Shown here piece after piece: positions 7,217-49,076 of a stretch of DNA of 56,856 bases. The position numbers were made by a program, and so were the translations under genes. The notes under the pieces are model-generated. The model saw nothing but the letters and a program-made list of their open reading frames with translations. It did not search any database and had not been told where the DNA came from. The DNA is from an uncultured Gammaproteobacteria bacterium (GTDB lineage Bacteria; Patescibacteriota; Patescibacteriia; UBA1558; S5-K13): contig CAYLQO010000001.1 of assembly GCA_964386425.1 (NCBI GenBank), positions 1 through 56,856 of the forward strand, given 5' to 3'. Numbering within the stretch: position 1 is the first letter of the stretch; each line of letters opens with the position of its first letter.

Positions 7217-8374
7217 CTATCTTGTGTGTTTTGATATATTAACAAGTATTCCCATTGCTGACAAACTCATTATCATAGCTGTTCCACCATAACTTACAAA
7301 TGGAAGCGGAACTCCCGTCATTGGCATGAGTCCAAGCATGGAACATATGTTTATCAAACTTTGAAATCCTATCCAACATATTATACCGGCTGATAATACT
7401 TTTCCATATGTGCTTTTTGTATTTTTTGAAATTTTGAGTCCATAACATATTAAAAGAAAAACAGCAAGAATATAAAAAAAACAAACAATAAAGCCCAGCT
7501 CTTCTCCCATTATTGCAAAAATTGAATCCCCGGATACTTCTGGAATATAACCATATTTTTGTCTTGATTGTCCAAGTCCTATACCAAGTAACCCACCAGA
7601 TCCAATTGCGATAAGTGATTGATTTAAATGATAACCAATTCCTTTTACATCTGAAGCGGGATTTAAAAATACAGTGAGCCTTGCTAGTCTATATGGAGCT
7701 GACTTTATAGCAACAAAAATCAATCCGAAAGCCAATAATATTAAAAATATTATATGTTTTATATTTCCCCCACCCATAAAAAATCCAGCAAAGGCAATTA
7801 TAAATATTATAGATAGTGTACCCAAATCTGGTTGTAATAACATTAAAACAGAAATAATTACTAATAATGTTAAAAATGGTATAAAACCCTGATAAAGGTC
7901 TTTTATTCTATTCCCACGTGATTCTATCCAACTCGCAAGATAAATTAAAAAGGTTAATTTAACAATTTCTGATGGTTGTAATGATATGCCAAAAACACTG
8001 ATCCAGCTTCTTGCATCTTTGCCGTGATCAGTACCAATTCCTGGAATAAAAACAAGAACCAAAAGTATTATTGATATAATAAGCATTAAAAATGAATATT
8101 TTTTCCAAAAATTAAAATCTATTTTTGATAAAACATAAAAACATATTAATCCTGGACATATTCCAAATAAAAACTGGTGCCAAAAAATATGATAGGTATT
8201 ACCATATTTTTTATATGACAACACTGGACTTGCAGATAAAAGAATAATGAGTCCAAATAGAACTAAAATCCATGAAATTACAATGATTCTATAATCTGGA
8301 CTATGTTCTGATTTATCTTTTTTTAGAATTGATCTAAAAAATGATTTAATTTTGTTTTCTTTGAAACTCCTCAT
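7217..8374 (-). CDS. ftsW: SEDS family peptidoglycan polymerase FtsW/RodA
   Basis: 385 aa polytopic membrane protein. QPSEIVKL and the C-terminal MPMTGVPLPFVSYGGTA are SEDS hallmarks. It lies between murD and murG. Confidence 0.88.
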   Translation of the reverse strand: MRSFKENKIKSFFRSILKKDKSEHSPDYRIIVISWILVLFGLIILLSASPVLSYKKYGNTYHIFWHQFLFGICPGLICFYVLSKIDFNFWKKYSFLMLIISIILLVLVFIPGIGTDHGKDARSWISVFGISLQPSEIVKLTFLIYLASWIESRGNRIKDLYQGFIPFLTLLVIISVLMLLQPDLGTLSIIFIIAFAGFFMGGGNIKHIIFLILLAFGLIFVAIKSAPYRLARLTVFLNPASDVKGIGYHLNQSLIAIGSGGLLGIGLGQSRQKYGYIPEVSGDSIFAIMGEELGFIVCFFYILAVFLLICYGLKISKNTKSTYGKVLSAGIICWIGFQSLINICSMLGLMPMTGVPLPFVSYGGTAMIMSLSAMGILVNISKHTR

Positions 8375-13178: not shown

Positions 13179-13181
13179 CAT

Positions 13182-13466
13182 ATGGCACATAAGAAATCTG
13201 GTGGTTCTACTCAGCTGGGAAGAGATTCCCGACCAAAAATGCTGGGTGTGAAAATGCAAAACGGACAAAGTGTAAAACCTGGCCAAATTATCATAAAACA
13301 GCGTGGTACAAAACATCATGCAGGAAAAAATGTTAAAAAGGGCTCTGATGATACACTTTATGCTGGAAAATCTGGAGTAATAAAGTTTTCCAAAAAAAAG
13401 GTAAAAGCATTTGATGGAAAACTTAAATTAAGAAGCTTTGTATCAATAGAAGAATCAAAGAAATAA
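13182..13466 (+). CDS. rpmA: 50S ribosomal protein L27
   Basis: The product begins [24 protein letters not shown], the canonical L27 N-terminus. Confidence 0.93.
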
Positions 13467-25407: not shown

Positions 25408-25926
25408 TTATGACGACTTGGAGTCCCTAATGCATTGAATGAGTGCTAGTTCGTCTTCATTGACACCCCATTTAGTCTGGTAGAGTTTCCAGTATTTCTC
25501 TACCATCCTTTGGACTTTTTCATGTCCCTCCGGAGTCTGAGTCCATAGAATCTGGTCACACCACCTTAGTGCAACCATCATTCCGTTTTCAGAATTTGAC
25601 ATGTTACACCACCCCCAATCTTCTGGATTAGGATCCCGAAGGGCGAGTTTTAACATTTTTTTTGCTATAGCCCTCTGTGCAGTTGGGTAATTAGCCGGAA
25701 GATAGTTACCTTCCACGCGTTGTGCATAACCGGAAATAATCTCCAGTTCCCATACGTTATCTGCTTGCCGAATCATTTGGTTGAGAGCTATGATCTTTAC
25801 GCCAGGTACCTTAGTGTAAAAGTAGGTGTCCACAAGAACTTTGTGTGGGATGGACACGAGTCCCAACGCAAGCATCACAACCAGAGCGAGTAAAAACCCG
25901 CACGCGAATATGGCAATTTTTTTCAT
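25408..25926 (-). CDS. hypothetical membrane-anchored/secreted protein, compositionally foreign
   Basis: 172 aa product with an N-terminal hydrophobic anchor MKKIAIFACGFLLALVVMLALGLV. The SD GGGAGG is at 25931-25936. The gene has its own promoter and terminator. I counted 29/60 G+C at 25801-25860. Confidence 0.7.
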   Translation of the reverse strand: MKKIAIFACGFLLALVVMLALGLVSIPHKVLVDTYFYTKVPGVKIIALNQMIRQADNVWELEIISGYAQRVEGNYLPANYPTAQRAIAKKMLKLALRDPNPEDWGWCNMSNSENGMMVALRWCDQILWTQTPEGHEKVQRMVEKYWKLYQTKWGVNEDELALIQCIRDSKSS

Positions 25927-29523: not shown

Positions 29524-30906
29524 TTAAACAGCTTCTTTTTTAAAAAGAACTTTAAATGTTTTAAGTAGTATTCTCAAGTCCAACATTAAACTCCAATTTT
29601 CTATATAATAAACATCAAGCCTTACCTCGTCTTCAAATTTTAAATTTGATCGCCCTGAAACCTGAGCCATTCCTGTTATACCTGGTTTTATAACTAAAAG
29701 TTGCATTTGTTCATCTTTATACTGCGAAACCTCACGAGGCTCATGAGCACGAGGTCCAACCAAACTCATTTGTCCTTTTATCACATTTAAAATTTGTGGG
29801 ATTTCATCAATTGAAGTGCGTCTTAAAAATTTTCCAACATGTGTAATTCTTGGATCATGCTTCATTTTAAAAAGTGGCCCATCATTTCTTTCATTAAATT
29901 TTATAAGTTCGTCTTTCATTTTTTCAGCATTATCAATCATTGATCTAAATTTATACATTTTAAATTCTCTATTTTTTGCTCCAATTCTGTTTAATTTTAC
30001 TAAAACTGGACCATGGGAATCAATTTTTATAATTATTCCTACGATTATATAAATTGGAATAAATACAATTAGACCCATAATTGAAAGAATAAAATCGAAA
30101 AATCTTTTCCAAATTCTTCCCCACCCCTCAAGTCGAGTTCTTTTTATTTCCACAATTGGAATCCCCGCAACATCATTTACTTCAAAATTTATTATTTTTG
30201 TTTCAAGAAGCGATGCTGTATATTTATAAGTAATATGTTTTACATTACATAAATTTATAAGCTGCGAAACAAATTCTTTTTCTGCATATGGATCAACAAG
30301 AATCATTTCATCAATTTTATTATCTGAAATATAATTTTTAATTTCATTGATTGAATTTTCATTTATTAAAAATTGATTTACTACTTCATATCCATATGTT
30401 TTGTCATTTTTAAATTCTGTTTTTAATTCTTCACTTGTTTCATTATTTCCAACGAGTATAATTTTTATTTTTATAATTCCTTTTTTAGCTAAGATTCTTC
30501 TTGTTATGTCTAGTATTATTCTTTCAATTAATAACAAAAAAACACCTATGACCCAATATATTATTACTATAAATCTAGATGAAAATAATCTTTGATTAAA
30601 GAAAAAAGCGATAATTAATATTAAAATAAATGTTGAGCAAGCTGAAAATACTTTTGCAAACTTTTGATAAACTGTTCTTTTTTCAGAACTATAAAGTCCA
30701 GAGATCATGAAAATTAAAATTGCAACGAAAGAAACTCCAATCAATATCTTAAAAAATAAAAAAAACGGCAACTCAAAAATTACCGGTCTATATTGAACTA
30801 CAAATTCTGCAAATCTCAAATAATAAGCAATTATTCCTGAAATCACGAGTAAAATAAAATCAAGTGGAATTTCTATTGCGTTTAAAAAAAGTTTATTTCT
30901 TATCAT
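29524..30906 (-). CDS. polyprenyl-phosphate glycosyl-1-phosphate transferase (WbaP/EpsL-like bacterial sugar transferase)
   Basis: The C-terminal domain reads KRFFDFILSIMGL...YKFRSM...PQILNVIKGQMSLVGPRA. I place the start at MIRNKLF (30906). The track ORF extends to 31014, but that extension overlaps the RNase P RNA 3' end and a 12 bp palindrome. Confidence 0.8.
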   Translation of the reverse strand: MIRNKLFLNAIEIPLDFILLVISGIIAYYLRFAEFVVQYRPVIFELPFFLFFKILIGVSFVAILIFMISGLYSSEKRTVYQKFAKVFSACSTFILILIIAFFFNQRLFSSRFIVIIYWVIGVFLLLIERIILDITRRILAKKGIIKIKIILVGNNETSEELKTEFKNDKTYGYEVVNQFLINENSINEIKNYISDNKIDEMILVDPYAEKEFVSQLINLCNVKHITYKYTASLLETKIINFEVNDVAGIPIVEIKRTRLEGWGRIWKRFFDFILSIMGLIVFIPIYIIVGIIIKIDSHGPVLVKLNRIGAKNREFKMYKFRSMIDNAEKMKDELIKFNERNDGPLFKMKHDPRITHVGKFLRRTSIDEIPQILNVIKGQMSLVGPRAHEPREVSQYKDEQMQLLVIKPGITGMAQVSGRSNLKFEDEVRLDVYYIENWSLMLDLRILLKTFKVLFKKEAV

Positions 30907-31009
30907 AAACTGAATATAATAAATTTTTGCTAAATTAGCTATAAGCCGAATTCTGTCTCCCCTACTATATAAAATTTTTATTAAAAATTTCATATAGTAG
31001 GGGATGATG

Positions 31010-31350
31010 ATCATCTATCTTGTCTATTTATCACTAAATAGATCTAGCAACCTACCACTCCAGCTAAGCTGGATTTCTTAGTTTTGCACCGAATAGAGTT
31101 TACCTCATCTCTATTGTCACCAATAGAGCGTCTGAGCTAATTATCTCAGAATTTCACCCTTAGTTAATCAAATTAGTTAAACTAATCAGATTATCAGGAA
31201 TATTTTCTGTTGTACTTGTCCTCTTTTAAAATTACTTTTAAAAGGGTTGCTGTTAGCAACTATTCCCAAGTTATAAAACTTGGCAAAAATGGTGTTCGGA
31301 CTTTCCTCGATGAGTCAAAACGATTCACCGCGATCATCCGCTAATCTAGC
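31010..31350 (-). ncRNA. rnpB: RNase P RNA (bacterial)
   Basis: The reverse complement of 31298-31308 is GAGGAAAGTCC, the universal P4 strand. AAGGGTGAAA is at 31152-31161 (rc). AAGAAATCCAGCTTAG is at 31064-31079 (rc) and resembles the conserved ACAGAANNCGGCTTA region. The ends are approximate. Confidence 0.85.
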
Positions 31351-44371: not shown

Positions 44372-45376
44372 TTATATTAATAATAAATTTTCAAAAATTA
44401 ATTTTGGATTTACGTTGTCAAAAATTATATTTCTTGAATTATTAGCAAAATTATAAAATTCTAACAAACGTTCTGTTTTATATTTTTCTGAAATACCCCT
44501 AATTTCGTCTTGTAAAAATGGATGTATTAATTCAGCATGTTCATCTGTTTTTAAAACACATATATCCCTTCCTATTCTCATAAAATCAACAAGAATTTTT
44601 GATAAAACATTATAAGAATCCTGAGTTCTTGATTTATCTACAATATTTTCAACCCATTTAAATTTGTCATTTATCGAACTATCTATTATTTCTATTGTTT
44701 GTTTCAAATCTTGTTTTCTTTTCTCCCACTCTTTTGGATTCTTTAAATATGCCATTGCAACTCCAGGCGCTCCACCTGAAAATTTTGATAATTCTATCGC
44801 TAAATTTTTATCAGCACCGTTATTTATTAAATAATCATAAATTTCTTTTTGTTTTACGCCAGAAAAAAGAATATTTTGTGAACGTGATTTTATTGTTGGC
44901 AAAATTTTATCAATATCTTGAGCTATTAAAATTACAAATGAATTTTTTGGTGGTTCTTCTATTATTTTTAAAAGTGCGTTTGATGATTCTTGATTTAGTC
45001 TATCAGCATCATTTATTATTCCAATTTTAAATTCTGACCGCATTGGTGTTAAGGAAAATTTTTCTCTGAAATCTCTAATTTGATCTATTGAAATATTTTT
45101 CTTATTATCTTCAAGTGATACTTGTATAAGATCTGGATGAGTTCCGTTTTTTATCTCTAAACAATCACTACATTTATTACATGGAATGGACTCCTCGTCT
45201 TTACAAAATATAGATTGCACAAAATATCTTGCAATTGTTTTTTTACCCACATCTTCAGCTCCTGCAAAAAGATAAGTATTTAAAAAATTCCTAGTTCTTA
45301 TAAGTTTCTGCAAATAGTTAATTATATTTGCATGTCCCAACATGTTCCAGTTATACAAAAATTTATCTTCTTTCAT
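44372..45376 (-). CDS. holB: DNA polymerase III subunit delta prime
   Basis: 334 aa product with the AAA+ motif GAEDVGKKT, the zinc module CNKCSDC and SRSQ (sensor). Confidence 0.82.
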   Translation of the reverse strand: MKEDKFLYNWNMLGHANIINYLQKLIRTRNFLNTYLFAGAEDVGKKTIARYFVQSIFCKDEESIPCNKCSDCLEIKNGTHPDLIQVSLEDNKKNISIDQIRDFREKFSLTPMRSEFKIGIINDADRLNQESSNALLKIIEEPPKNSFVILIAQDIDKILPTIKSRSQNILFSGVKQKEIYDYLINNGADKNLAIELSKFSGGAPGVAMAYLKNPKEWEKRKQDLKQTIEIIDSSINDKFKWVENIVDKSRTQDSYNVLSKILVDFMRIGRDICVLKTDEHAELIHPFLQDEIRGISEKYKTERLLEFYNFANNSRNIIFDNVNPKLIFENLLLI

Positions 45377-45494
45377 ACTATCGGAAGTTTTATGTTTATA
45401 TATGTTAAGAATATCAAATTTTTAGTGTTTATACAATGTAAATAAAACTCTAAATTGCTAATTTCTAATATAAAAAGTTATCCACAGCTAACTA

Positions 45495-45522
45495 TTGACA
45501 AATTTTGTGAGTATGCTATAGT
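45495..45522 (+). promoter_or_regulatory. near-consensus extended -10 promoter of the large GC-rich RNA
   Basis: TTGACA at 45495-45500, a 16 nt spacer, then TGcTATAGT (TG at 45514-45515, hexamer at 45517-45522). Confidence 0.7.
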
Positions 45523-45529
45523 ACTCTGT

Positions 45530-46635
45530 TAGCCTAAAAATGTAATTTAACAATTTAGAGATCTGTAAAGGGCAGAATTATGCAGAAGATATGCAAGATA
45601 AATATCCAGAATAAATAGCTAAAAACTTCATAGAAACAGCTAAAAATAACGTGAAATTCATCTTCTTCTACATAATTCTGCCCTTACCCACTACTGGTTT
45701 CTTCGATGAAGGAAATTCAAAACCAGTACGGTAAAAAGGAGAGAAAATGAAACATGCCCCTCCGAATAGCCCGCTTAATAACGGGCCCATTAAAAGTATT
45801 GACAACCTCACCGTGCCCACCAGCGCCGCCGCCAACAACACCTCCGGCTGATCCCTGGATCATCTCCTGCCGAGCACTGGTATGTGTAACCCAGCCAGTG
45901 CCACCCAGACAAGAAAAGGGTGAAAATGTGGGTAAAAGAGACAAGATTTACAAACCATGTCTCACTGGAAATTCAACGGAGGCCCAAATCGCCTCAACAA
46001 GGAGATTTCGATGAGCCATTCAGGATTCCAGTAAATCTAAGGCCGCCCAATCTCATCTCGGCCAATAACCTATAAAGATGAGACTTGAAAATTCTCTGGC
46101 AATAGTGATAGGAAAACCTAGGGGGAGAAGCTTATCCCCTGGAAAAACCACCACAGAGCAACGCTCAAAACGCCATAAGGAGAATTTATCAAGCGGGACC
46201 TTTAAAAACACCTGATCGCCGTGGCACACGCATGGGCACAGACCCGTCGCCCACACAGCCAGCCGCCCATAGGAAAACCTAACTGGACCGCTGAGCTTCC
46301 GAATCGCCACGACAAACCTGGATTGCGGATAGGGGCCCATAGCTACAAAGCTATCTTGGCCCCCCGCACTCCGGGAATCGACCCCCGCCTCAAGAAAAGG
46401 CCCCCACCCAGACAAGGGCCACTCATGACATCAGTCAAGGGAATTGTACTGGAATTGATCTCAGCCCTTCCTTTGCGGGAAATTCTACCGCGGAAGATAA
46501 ACCCGCGCCAAGACCCAAAGAGCTGAGACGCCGTGAGTATGGGGAGTCACGCTAGACTTCCATGCCAAGTGAAGCTCGGCCAGACTCCCCTCGCGGTTAA
46601 AACCACGCCCCCGCCTACACAAGACGGGGGTTTTT
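45530..46635 (+). ncRNA. candidate large (about 1.1 kb) structured noncoding RNA, unknown class
   Basis: It runs from a promoter to a terminator on the strand opposite all neighbouring genes. GC is far above context (36/60 at 46201-46260). It has many stems of 5-22 bp, including GGGGAGTC (46541-46548) with GACTCCCC (46583-46590). Only short ORFs in mixed frames occur on both strands. Confidence 0.6.
46608..46635 (+). terminator. intrinsic terminator of the large RNA
   Basis: CCCCCG (46608-46613) pairs with CGGGGG (46625-46630). TTTTT follows at 46631-46635. Confidence 0.8.
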
Positions 46636-46679
46636 ATATAAACATATTGACAAAATTTAAATATAATTATAACATATAA

Positions 46680-46826
46680 ATGTTGAGTTCCCAATCAACT
46701 AGTCCGGGGCCCTAGGACTCTTTGAGGGTACGGGGGATCATGAAAACTTGGTATGGTTATATCCAAATGAGATCAAATCAAGCATGATTCTAACAGTAGG
46801 TGGACATAGCGAAACCTACTTTTTTA
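46680..46826 (+). ncRNA. candidate small RNA (about 145 nt), unknown class
   Basis: TTGACA is at 46647-46652, with a weak -10 TATAAC at 46668-46673. Three or more hairpins are visible. The terminator is GTAGGT (46796-46801) with ACCTAC (46814-46819) plus a T-run. No ORF is present. Confidence 0.45.
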
Positions 46827-46890
46827 TTTGGAAAAAATTATAAAAAACAAATCAATATTTAACTGACTCTAAACTCCTAAAAGCTAATAG

Positions 46891-47283
46891 TTAATTGCTG
46901 TCCAATGCTTCATTAACTAATTTATCAGCCAGAGAATTCTCCTCTCTTCTAACATGGGTAAAGGTAATTTTTTTAAAACTTTGTTTCATGTTCCAAACAC
47001 GAACAAAAAGAACTGCCAAATCTTTGTCTTTTACTTTAAATTCTCTATTTAGTTGTTTTACAACTAGTTCACTATCTAGAAAGCATTCTAATTCTTTTAT
47101 ATTTAAATTTATTGCGATTTGAATTCCTTTTATAATTGCTTTGTACTCTGCTTGATTGTTTGTACAATTTCCAATGACCTGCGAAAAAGTTTCAATAATT
47201 TTCTCATTGTGAATTAAAACTCCTCCAATAGCACCTGGCCCAGGATTTCCACGAGATCCACCATCTGTAAATAATTTATACAT
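46891..47283 (-). CDS. rnhA: ribonuclease HI
   Basis: 130 aa product with LFTDGGSRGNPGPGAIGGVL, NNQAEYKA and the C-terminal NSLADKLVNEA. Confidence 0.88.
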   Translation of the reverse strand: MYKLFTDGGSRGNPGPGAIGGVLIHNEKIIETFSQVIGNCTNNQAEYKAIIKGIQIAINLNIKELECFLDSELVVKQLNREFKVKDKDLAVLFVRVWNMKQSFKKITFTHVRREENSLADKLVNEALDSN

Positions 47284-48997
47284 TTTCTTTTGAATTATTT
47301 ATATCTGAAATATATATTTCTATGTTTCTATTTCCATTCCACTCATTTATAGAAATAGTAACTACTAAATCTATTTTATCTCCAATTTTTAAATTTGAAA
47401 ACTTGTTTGCAAATCCGAAACCAACTGCTCTTTTTATGACACCATCTTGCTCTAATGTAATTCTAAGATGAGATTTATCAGAACCCATTGTAGTTACATC
47501 TTTAACAATACAATTTTTTAATAAAAATTTTGGTTCTGGATTTTCAACTCCAAATGGTTCAAATTTATCAAGAGAGTCACATAAATTCCAATCAACATCT
47601 CCTAAATTTATCTCTGATTCAACTTTTAAAGATGGGCTAAGTTCTACTCCCGTTAACTTTTTTTCTAATTCTTCTTTTATAACACCTTGAACATATTCTA
47701 AATTTTCGTCTGGAATAGAAAATCCTGCTGCTGATTTATGTCCACCAAATCTGATTAATTTTTCTTTGAACTTCAAAATTATATCCATTATATCAACTTC
47801 ATCTATCGAACGACATGAGCAAACCCAATGTTTATTATCATGCCCTAACACAAAACTAGGCCTGTAATATTCCTGAGATAATTTCCCCGCAACGAGCCCT
47901 ATAATTCCTAAATTCCATTTGTCATTTTTCACAAATATAAATTTCGTATTTTCATCCACGCAATCAATTTGGCTCTTTGCCTCAAGAACAATTTTATTCG
48001 TTAAGTCTTGTCTCTTGGAATTACTTATATTTAATTCTCTTGCAATTTTTATGGCTGTTTCTAAATTATTTGTTTTTACAAGTTCAAAAGCATTGTTTGC
48101 ATGATCCATGCGTCCTGCTGAATTAAGTCTTGGACCAATCTGAAAACCAATTGTAGTGCTATTTATTTTTTCTACATTAGTTCCTGCTATTTCATAAAGT
48201 TGTTGAAGTCCCAATCTTTGAGTTTTTCTTAGAACTATAAGTCCATATTTTACCAAAGTTCTGTTTTCTCCTATTAATGGAACCATGTCTGTGACAGTTC
48301 CAATTGCAACTAAATCAAGTAACCATTTCAAACTTTTTTCTCTTTCAATTTCATCTTTGCTAAATAATTCACTTCTGATAATTCCTGATGCGAATTTGTA
48401 GGTAACGCCAACTCCTGCTAAATTTTTTGTGGGGTAATTTTCTCGTGCGAGTCCCGGGTGAATTATGGCATAAGCATTTGGTAATTTTTCTGGTTCTTTG
48501 TGATGATCAGTTATTATTACATCAACTCCATTGGCATTAAAAAGTTCAACTTCTTGAAAATTACTAATTCCGCAATCACAGGTTACAATAAGAGTAAATT
48601 TCCTATCAATAATTTCTTTTACTGCGGTTTCATTTAGTCCGTAACCTTCTGTTTCTCGCTGTGGAATATAAACTTCTGGATGAAGTCCAATTTGAGTAAA
48701 AATATCAAATAAAAGTGTTGAGCTCGTCACTCCATCAGCATCATAATCACCATAAATTAGAACTTCTTCATTATTACCTACTGCTTGAAATATTCTTTCA
48801 ACTGCTTTCTTCATATCAATTAAAACATACGGATCACAAATATCTGAAATAAAATCAGAATTAAAAAACTCATCAATTTGTTCCTGTGTTGTAACTCCTC
48901 TATTATAAAGCAATTGCAAAATCAAGGGACTCATGTCCGGAAATTGTTTTGCGAAATTATCAGGAATTTTCTCTGCTAATTTCCACTTTTTACTCAT
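47276..48997 (-). CDS. recJ: single-stranded-DNA-specific exonuclease RecJ
   Basis: It has the DHH motifs (IYGDYDADGVTS, DCGISN, ITDHH) and DHHA1 (GGHKSAAG). I place the start at MSKKWKL (48997). The 25-codon track extension to 49072 runs through a terminator hairpin. Confidence 0.85.
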   Translation of the reverse strand: MSKKWKLAEKIPDNFAKQFPDMSPLILQLLYNRGVTTQEQIDEFFNSDFISDICDPYVLIDMKKAVERIFQAVGNNEEVLIYGDYDADGVTSSTLLFDIFTQIGLHPEVYIPQRETEGYGLNETAVKEIIDRKFTLIVTCDCGISNFQEVELFNANGVDVIITDHHKEPEKLPNAYAIIHPGLARENYPTKNLAGVGVTYKFASGIIRSELFSKDEIEREKSLKWLLDLVAIGTVTDMVPLIGENRTLVKYGLIVLRKTQRLGLQQLYEIAGTNVEKINSTTIGFQIGPRLNSAGRMDHANNAFELVKTNNLETAIKIARELNISNSKRQDLTNKIVLEAKSQIDCVDENTKFIFVKNDKWNLGIIGLVAGKLSQEYYRPSFVLGHDNKHWVCSCRSIDEVDIMDIILKFKEKLIRFGGHKSAAGFSIPDENLEYVQGVIKEELEKKLTGVELSPSLKVESEINLGDVDWNLCDSLDKFEPFGVENPEPKFLLKNCIVKDVTTMGSDKSHLRITLEQDGVIKRAVGFGFANKFSNLKIGDKIDLVVTISINEWNGNRNIEIYISDINNSKENV

Positions 48998-49045
48998 ATA
49001 TTTTCTTTTAACTTTCACATAGAGATTATAAAGGAAATATTGGAA

Positions 49046-49076
49046 AAACACAAAAAGTGAGCAACAACTCACTTTT
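49046..49076 (-). terminator. intrinsic terminator after the ferredoxin gene
   Basis: The minus strand reads AAAAGTGAGTTGTTGCTCACTTTTTGTGTTTTT. Confidence 0.65.

Follow-up and report, generated by a model that had tools for sequence, protein, structure and literature searches.

A candidate long RNA gene with exchangeable structured domains between rnhA and holB in Patescibacteria

Introduction

Apart from ribosomal RNA, few bacterial RNAs are known that exceed 0.5 kb, and OLE, GOLLD, ROOL, raiA and HEARO have each brought unexpected biology. GOLLD is described as having one variable half. The Patescibacteria form a very large group, almost none of it in culture, whose genomes are minimal and for which 1.1 kb of non-coding DNA is a costly possession. 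Our subject is a gene of this size (approximately 45530-46635, + strand) in a 56,856-nt stretch of DNA assigned to that group (contig CAYLQO010000001.1, positions 1 to 56,856, henceforth the window), where it lies between rnhA and holB, antisense to both. A first-pass annotation, made from the letters of the DNA alone, had seen there a new large structured non-coding RNA. The proposal is supported: the gene probably acts as an RNA, of an undescribed family that public data place in a single clade of Patescibacteria, always between rnhA and holB and always antisense. There is not, however, one conserved ornate fold; the body of the RNA turned out to be a mosaic of optional domains. Full-text literature searches returned no description of such an RNA, nor of any large RNA from Patescibacteria. 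The one RNA system reported from these organisms is the TIGR array, with its 36-nt repeat units and Tas gene (PMC12045711).

Set beside GOLLD, ROOL and OLE, the locus shares their size (0.6-1.2 kb), their many GC-rich helices, a promoter and a terminator of its own and the lack of a long open reading frame (ORF), as well as a narrow phylogenetic range and the appearance of a GC-rich island in an AT-rich genome. It differs from them in having no covariance-model similarity and no family-wide core, in the swapping of whole domains between near-identical strains, and in the presence of strong mini-ORFs led by Shine-Dalgarno (SD) motifs. Unlike GOLLD and ROOL, it is found without prophage or tRNA context; unlike OLE, it has no oapA, oapB or oapC among its flank genes, the Oap families not having been searched by name. 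We class it as a new family among those large bacterial RNAs whose function is unknown, set apart by an unusual architecture, mosaic and variable between strains. The combination is uncommon: signs of selection for folding, cassette-like exchange of domains, and strong ribosome sites in a genome otherwise without them. Were transcription confirmed, this would be a testable case of long-RNA evolution by domain shuffling, and the locus may be, besides, a marker of conflict at strain level or of interaction with the host in episymbiotic bacteria. Four rival accounts are weighed below, which we rank in this order: a messenger for micro-peptides, a precursor of small RNAs, inert foreign DNA, and a diverged known family or an antisense transcript.

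A transcription unit facing its neighbours

The extended -10 promoter and the intrinsic terminator of the first-pass annotation are there to the letter (Table 1). The former scores 11/12 plus the TG extension, which makes it the top sigma-70 site within 44500-47500, and transcription is expected to start at about 45529-45531. An automated terminator scan, limited to loops of 8 nt, has no + strand entry here, for which the 11-nt loop is taken as the reason. An equivalent promoter (TTGACA, 16-17 nt, TGnTATAnT, then a short leader) occupies the same position in all alleles that were read with the 5' end intact, among them the distant L047 and L065 (homologous loci are designated by L numbers). 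Other alleles terminate at the equivalent place by means of different hairpins followed by T runs, in the + orientation only, and this fixes the transcribed strand. Promoter and intrinsic terminator thus flank the unit in every allele read with intact ends, with promoters and terminators at matching places in L001, L004, L005, L006, L034, L036, L039, L047 and L065.

The abrupt change of composition noticed at first reading was recounted with identical results, 36/60 G+C at 46201-46260 against 10/60 at 44401-44460. It belongs to an island (45676-46725) that reaches 61% G+C when the window averages 28.6%, by far the strongest island of the window; the long RNA itself has 52-61% G+C. All lineages keep a high G+C against the AT-rich background, including those with no more than 51% HolB identity. 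A bacterial class A RNase P RNA is found at 30926-31349 (- strand, 171 bits), its 3' end overlapped over 89 nt by a mechanical ORF (29524-31014). Having only 34% G+C, it indicates that structured RNAs need not be GC-rich here, so that the long RNA stands out all the more. The opposite orientation of the unit was also borne out: ORFs of at least 120 amino acids fill 3814-52424 and are all on the - strand, save one on the + strand that overlaps a longer - strand ORF.

Upstream of the promoter stands a perfect match to the DnaA-box consensus, a candidate site for DnaA binding. The 9-mer taken alone is not significant, with three perfect copies in the window, and the argument comes from its conserved position rather than from its rarity. 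A perfect box (GTTATCCACA) is invariant in the L004, L005, L034, L036 and L039 alleles while the flanking bases vary, and it remains 6-8 nt upstream of the -35 hexamer in the clade of the window. L001 has the variant TTATTCACA; the box is inverted in L046 and L047 and absent from L065. At the place of the box, upstream of the promoter, L065 (1700-1732) and L048 (about 135-170, - strand), a lineage with 51% HolB identity, carry a perfect GC-rich hairpin (CCACCCGCCGGGTG-loop-CACCCGACGGGTGG). A replication origin was considered for this region and ruled out by the single DnaA box, the single gene orientation on both sides and a monotonic GC skew.

Downstream of the start comes H1, a long AT-rich hairpin present in every allele read with an intact 5' end (sequence stretch GCAGAATTATGCAGAAGA). 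Its basal stem is 95% complementary. The inner GYAGAAGA/UCUUCUAC is conserved and the outer stem covaries completely in L047 and L065, where, as read by hand, GGGCAGAATT/AATTCTGCCC stands against CAGYGAAA../..TTTTTCRCTG, so that covariation of H1 spans three lineages. We infer that H1 is a stem for RNase III, processing or stability.

Mosaic alleles at a variable position

Homologues, which the first-pass annotation had suggested looking for, were traced through their RecJ and HolB neighbours in genome, metagenome and Logan contigs; exact matching of the RNase H and RecJ proteins of the window led to no contig. About ten distinct alleles were collected from related Patescibacteria, all in the same rnhA-holB slot and antisense to both genes, with HolB identities to the window of 47-100%: L001 (100%); L004, L005 (identical to L032, L033 and L037), L034 (whose allele is also that of L031 and L035) and L036 (82-83%); L039 (68%); the truncated L047 (53%); L065 (51%); and L006 (47%), the unit of which is shorter and has 40-47% G+C at most. 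The features that they share are the promoter, an AT-rich 22-bp 5' stem, a strong SD motif whose start codon opens a tiny ORF, GC hairpins under loops of A and C, and the terminator.

What lies between is distributed in an odd manner. The window and L001 agree at 99.8% of positions over 7.4 kb of one flank and at 98.9% over 5 kb of the other, with an unalignable middle (the cassette of Table 1), while L039, at 68% HolB identity, has the allele of the window at 85% nucleotide identity. L036 combines domains of L005 type, of window type and of L001/L034 type; L038 and L040 part from L039 just past the DnaA box, into unrelated sequence. It appears clear from these comparisons that domains are exchanged as blocks between strains and species and that the RNA exists as discrete mosaic alleles. 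The sole deeply conserved core that was found consists of GGYCGGAUAACCCAGCAYAGCA, a variable hairpin and GAAGCACUGGUUUAAAACCGAC (sequence stretch GAAGCACTGGTTTAAAACCGAC), and is shared between lineages only about 50% identical in HolB. It was discarded as a universal core, its covariance model finding L004, L005, L036 and L065 only and missing the allele of the window.

The slot is empty in L007, leaving a 38-nt gap (8183-8222), and in L041 (753-1807) and L043 (2639-3500) it is taken up by an AT-rich gene that encodes a small multi-pass membrane protein of 125 or 182 amino acids, with a similar promoter and a strong SD motif. The rnhA-holB slot is thus a variable accessory position. Contigs of many independent assemblies end in or next to it (L003, L031, L034, L035, L038, L040, L042 and L045-L049), likely as a consequence of strain heterogeneity that makes assembly fail, a practical point for those who assemble metagenomes. 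Two other readings of the locus were set aside. No copy of any domain was found outside the slot in the 0.55 Mb of sequence examined, which disposes of a dispersed repeat or selfish GC cluster; a tandem array was rejected because TRF reports none in 45495-46635 and a repeat search yields only scattered two-copy 10-13-mers.

Folding and compensatory changes

The body is a chain of GC-rich hairpin domains with loops made nearly entirely of A and C: over all alleles, A makes up 50% of the positions predicted to be unpaired, C 29% and G 7% (79% A or C). Its minimum free energy (MFE) is -316.8 kcal/mol, about 59 kcal/mol lower than that of 20 dinucleotide shuffles (-257.6 +/- 11; z = -5.4), an energy that tells nothing about the strand, since both strands beat their shuffles. 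The six helices found by hand at first reading are where they had been placed, with arms that are exact reverse complements bar one G-U pair in CCGTGAG/TCGCGG. The test that had been proposed for them, covariation, also went in their favour: in the homologues, pairing is retained through compensatory changes, through wobble changes, or through replacement of the top of a hairpin over a retained base.

In L005 and L036, for example, GCTAG/CTAGC replaces the ACTGG/CCAGT of H2, amounting to two compensatory pairs. CACTGG/CCAGTG becomes TACTGG/CCAGTA in L039, a compensatory change from C-G to U-A, the GAGACA/TGTCTC hairpin is retained there by a G-U pair, and the TCTCATCT/AGATGAGA stem is identical under a loop that differs and contains an indel. 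The domain that the window shares with L036 keeps its basal stem under a swapped top (ATAGCT/AGCTAT against CAAC/GTTG), with three compensatory pairs. Next to it, the domain shared with L004, L005 and L036 (nhmmer E = 5e-17) displays five pairs with compensatory change: GCGGG/CCCGC of the window reads GCAGG/CCTGC in L004 (by hand), and GGCCC/GGGCC reads GGCTC/GGAGCC in relatives. The 3' closing helix recurs with other letters in L004, L005, L034 and L036, where the domain that it closes is larger and three-way. Over four alleles, the 3' domain has 63 pairs that are 92% paired; 11 are changed on both sides compared with 4.8 +/- 1.6 after shuffling (0/500 reach 11), a control known to overstate significance for related sequences, and with 1-4 after sliding of the partners.

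The RNA also evolves slowly. Between the window and L039 it differs at 14.7% of aligned positions (85% identical) when holB DNA is 77% identical and 129/335 of the third codon positions of holB differ (38.5%), a divergence about 2.6 times slower for the RNA than for these third positions. The comparison clearly points to domains under selection to fold. Taken at the level of sequence, the unit has what marks a structured non-coding RNA gene, namely helices kept through compensatory changes, a promoter and a terminator of its own, and no conserved long ORF.

These observations bear directly on the third rival, a decayed foreign gene or inert GC-rich DNA acquired horizontally in an insertion hot spot and devoid of RNA function. 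It would account for a G+C content far from that of the genome, for a slot occupied in relatives by a membrane-protein gene or by nothing, and for the many contigs that stop there. It does not account for promoter, H1 and terminator conserved around every allele, for compensatory changes in an RNA more conserved than holB, nor for the high G+C kept in such distant lineages, and no protein similarity is seen in any frame of five alleles. We regard this explanation as largely refuted and very improbable.

The rival according to which the transcript comes from the opposite strand has in its favour a - strand that folds with lower energy and z-score. Against it, promoters and T-run terminators are conserved in the + orientation only, and wobble pairs favour that strand as well: on the promoter strand there are more G-U pairs than A-C mismatches, an asymmetry that speaks for +. 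We give this view, taken together with that of a diverged known family (discussed below), hardly any credence.

Ribosome-binding sites and mini-ORFs

Only 1/42 genes of the window has an SD motif upstream. This gene (25408-25926, - strand, tagGGAGGaaaa) codes for a 172-amino-acid protein without Pfam match, in a patch of up to 47% G+C. In the RNA bodies of eight alleles, strong SD motifs number 36 against 7.3 expected and SD followed by ATG 19 against 0.6 (about 30-fold), in counts inflated by the relatedness of the alleles and by overlapping motifs.

A strong SD with a start codon is present in the 5' part of every complete allele. The ORF that follows, ORF1, has 2-37 codons, and its ratio of nonsynonymous to synonymous change (pN/pS) is 0.66-0.86 among the window, L039 and L001; with such variation in length it is the start site that is conserved, not the peptide. 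In five alleles, including the distant L065, ORF1 comes down to a start codon (AUG or UUG), GAC or GGC, and UAG. Between the window and L039 it has two indels, both of 3 nt. A second one, the SGF mini-ORF, recurs in otherwise unalignable alleles as ..[H/Y/N]-S-G-F-[Q/T/Y]-stop, with the endings MSHSGFQ in L039, ..HSGFT in L036, MYSGFT in L034, ..ANSGFY in L005 and, truncated, ..RDSG in L006; it is absent from L001 and L004. Its changes fall on third codon positions (TCA/TCT, GGA/GGT, TTC/TTT), TAA, TGA and TAG are all used, and a GC hairpin begins 3-6 nt after each of its stops. This mini-ORF may be translated, and loading of ribosomes or 30S subunits is probably part of the working of the long RNA. 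The non-coding status put forward at first reading is supported with a qualification: given the tiny SD-led ORFs, one with codon-like substitutions, the gene may not be purely non-coding.

Dual-function RNAs come to mind. As in RNAIII of Staphylococcus aureus, SR1 and SgrS, we see a long multi-hairpin transcript with a strong promoter, its own terminator and a short ORF that looks translated; as in RNAIII and other dual-function RNAs, single-stranded loops are C-rich and the locus is polymorphic between strains. Unlike RNAIII, it shows no sequence relation, is twice as long, adjoins no sensor/regulator operon and has a peptide that is not conserved. Targeting of SD regions by C-rich loops is unlikely here, since the genes of this genome lack SD motifs. 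Could the gene be, then, a dual-function or micro-peptide messenger after the fashion of RNAIII/hld and SR1/SR1P, the products of which are the short SD-led peptides, with GC hairpins for stability or translational control? The enrichment of SD with ATG in a genome that hardly uses SD, the start site kept even in L065, the third-position variation of the SGF mini-ORF with three stop codons interchanging at one place, and the 3-nt indels of ORF1 would all fit. Yet ORF1 lacks peptide constraint and is reduced in five alleles to start, Asp or Gly, and stop; the SGF mini-ORF is missing from two alleles; ORF makes up 15% of the transcript or less; no peptide-processing genes adjoin; and it is the untranslated body, with its compensatory changes, that is the part under selection. 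We consider the messenger account unlikely.

Searches against known families and systems

All 4227 Rfam 15 models were run with cmscan, among them those that the first-pass annotation had listed (GOLLD, ROOL, OLE, HEARO, raiA, introns and tmRNA), and no family was recognised. At the gathering score neither the long RNA of the window nor nine related loci had a match, and at E <= 10 that of the window gave only chance-type microRNA and small nucleolar RNA/small RNA (snoRNA/sRNA) matches, as did three other alleles under permissive E-values. Permissive searches (E <= 10 or <= 5) of the window, L036 and L034 returned nothing from GOLLD, ROOL, OLE, HEARO or raiA; no model reached E = 1 on the window allele or on L036, and the matches below E = 1 in L034 were of chance type, far under the gathering score. 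ARAGORN finds only a tRNA-Thr in the window, in line with the lack of an Rfam tmRNA match. Group I and group II introns are likewise without Rfam match, with no interrupted host gene and no intron-encoded ORF. That the gene might be a diverged member of a described class (GOLLD, ROOL, OLE, HEARO, raiA, tmRNA, 6S, group I/II intron) is suggested by its size and ornate GC-rich look, close to those of GOLLD, ROOL and OLE; with no Rfam model at E = 1 on the window and L036 and no tmRNA for ARAGORN, it comes, together with the opposite-strand transcript, last in our ranking.

Protein searches were equally barren. The statement of the first-pass annotation that no ORF resembles any family was upheld, five ORFs of the window remaining without Pfam match at E <= 1, and its check for a decayed foreign gene found no translated frame with a protein or Pfam match. 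In L001, L005, L036 and L034, concatenated six-frame segments gave no Pfam match either. The six-frame translation of the window allele, compared with 5.8e9 proteins, is not represented among the best 8000 candidates, a weak negative. The sole ORF that a gene caller recognises in any allele, an antisense one of 180 amino acids in L036, matches only itself. A protein-coding gene or pseudogene was rejected on these grounds, no Pfam match being seen in any frame of five alleles and the protein search being empty, if weakly so. As for mobile elements, blastn at distant sensitivity against 50,697 phage records gave nothing, blastn against plasmids one 30-nt chance match only, and two pattern scans of IMG/VR chance matches only; a phage or plasmid origin was dropped, nothing similar being present in the collections scanned.

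The likeness to CRISPR, TIGR and integron arrays lies in the arrangement, with units that vary between strains placed behind a conserved promoter and leader, at a locus where assemblies break and near-identical genomes differ in allele. There are no direct repeats and no 36-nt periodicity (TIGR features: PMC12045711), no cas, tas or intI in the flanks, and the units are long folded domains, not spacers. For integrons in particular, no integrase is present in the flanks read, the divergent gene is holB, and a look by eye for R''/R' boxes, made with no dedicated attC model, gave no consistent pattern. The second rival sees in the gene a cassette array transcribed as a precursor of several small RNAs (guides, decoys or regulators), which would be cut into hairpins, with H1 as the first processing site and a repertoire that differs between strains. 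RNase III cuts long perfect stems of the kind of H1. Domains that are independent, exchangeable and without common core, A-rich linkers between hairpins, the 22-bp 5' stem of RNase III-substrate kind and a strain-level turnover of alleles as seen in defence loci would agree with this scheme. The domains, however, are not separated by any repeat unit, periodic spacing or conserved signal for processing; no Cas, Tas, Argonaute or TnpB effector gene is found within the flanks read; and long-distance helices, such as those of the 3' three-way domain, fit one folded molecule better. We judge a small-RNA precursor quite improbable.

Interpretation

To be sure, several observations weigh against an RNA that works through its fold. 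We infer transcription, ends and abundance alike, transcription from the conservation of promoter and terminator. The antisense strand folds at least as well as the sense strand (z = -8.4). L039 retains the MFE model of the window poorly, with 15 broken pairs against 2 compensatory ones, which is why per-domain alignments were used as the basis of the structure; a long-range pairing between mini-ORF and 5' leader, seen in L039, was dropped since it does not covary in L005 or the window. With about ten alleles, and two to four per domain, the covariation statistics are thin, in addition to the bias of the shuffle control. No structured core is universal, which speaks against one tertiary fold conserved throughout, and a scaffold or sponge has no named partner. 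CCUCC is enriched too and some GGAGG motifs pair with it, so that part of the GGAGG excess is merely helix sequence. The SGF mini-ORF varies in a codon-like manner, which suggests a possible role for peptides.

With these reservations, a structured RNA gene remains the account that we favour, and its working may be sketched as follows. The promoter would give rise to an abundant, highly expressed RNA, with H1 serving as a processing or stability stem and ribosomes loading onto the mini-ORFs. From the conserved DnaA box one may suppose that DnaA modulates the promoter and that expression follows replication status. Our best guess for the chain of hairpins is a platform of many sites that serves proteins or ribosomal subunits as a scaffold or sponge, where each domain would be an independent, individually dispensable binding module; this would explain why domains can be gained, lost or swapped without destroying the gene.

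A bolder proposal, which we put forward as speculation and think rather unlikely, is that of a hypervariable RNA gene in which a fixed platform (DnaA-box promoter, 5' stem and ribosome-loading mini-ORF) carries recombining folded domains, their repertoires being kept polymorphic across species by selection, as strain-specific determinants of conflict or partnership. If this were true, the domains could be decoys for RNA-binding factors of phages or toxins, or RNAs aimed at the host cell of these episymbionts, and the locus would be comparable, at the level of RNA, to mosaic loci for surface antigens or to defence islands.

Features and neighbourhood of the locus

Table 1. Positions of the elements of the long RNA locus within the window
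Feature	Position	Strand	Details
DnaA-box consensus	45478-45486	+	TTATCCACA; 8 nt upstream of the -35 hexamer
Sigma-70 promoter, extended -10	45495-45522	+	TTGACA (45495-45500), 16-nt spacer, TGcTATAGT (45514-45522)
H1, AT-rich long 5' hairpin	45568-45685	+	22-bp basal stem (45568-89 with 45664-85), 74-nt top
H2 hairpin	45692-45728	+	TACTGGTTT/AAACCAGTA
ORF1	45736-45851	+	strong SD AAGGAG 45736-45741, ATG 45747, 34 codons (MKHAPPNS...SG*)
Allelic cassette	45776-46556	+	781 nt; in L001 replaced by unalignable GC-rich 603 nt
Hairpin CACTGG/CCAGTG	45875-45900	+	
Hairpin GAGACA/TGTCTC	45938-45963	+	
SGF mini-ORF	45999-46034	+	strong SD AAGGAG 45999-46004, ATG..TAA 46011-46034 (MSHSGFQ*)
Hairpin TCTCATCT/AGATGAGA	46051-46083	+	
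Domain common to window and L036	46249-46373	+	includes hairpin GGGGCC..GGCCCC 46332-46363
Domain common to window, L004, L005, L036	46382-46528	+	GGCCC-loop CCACCCAGACAA-GGGCC; GCGGG..CCCGC
3' closing helix	46531-46596	+	CCGTGAG-GGGAGTC with GACTCCC-CTCGCGG
Intrinsic terminator	46608-46635	+	CCCCCG (46608-46613), 11-nt loop, CGGGGG and T5 (together 46625-46635)
RNA2	46647-46832	+	TTGACA-17-TAACAT promoter, folded RNA of about 145 nt, hairpin + T7 terminator

The long RNA is followed by a second unit, RNA2, which has no Rfam match. L001, L004, L005 and L006 likewise have a tandem unit behind the long RNA, equipped with a promoter and a terminator of its own, and L036 lacks it; the copy of L001 is nearly unchanged from that of the window, and the units of L004, L005 and L006 differ in sequence. 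RNA2 is 78% complementary at 46768-46790 to positions 46441-46463 of the long RNA, and its link to the latter is positional only.

The genes of the flanks are those for HolB (44372-45376), a BNR-repeat protein, RRF, RNase HI (rnhA, 46891-47283) and RecJ (47276-49072). Further away, at about 13180-13440, a small GC-richer patch reads by eye as ribosomal protein L27, among the few genes of the + strand.

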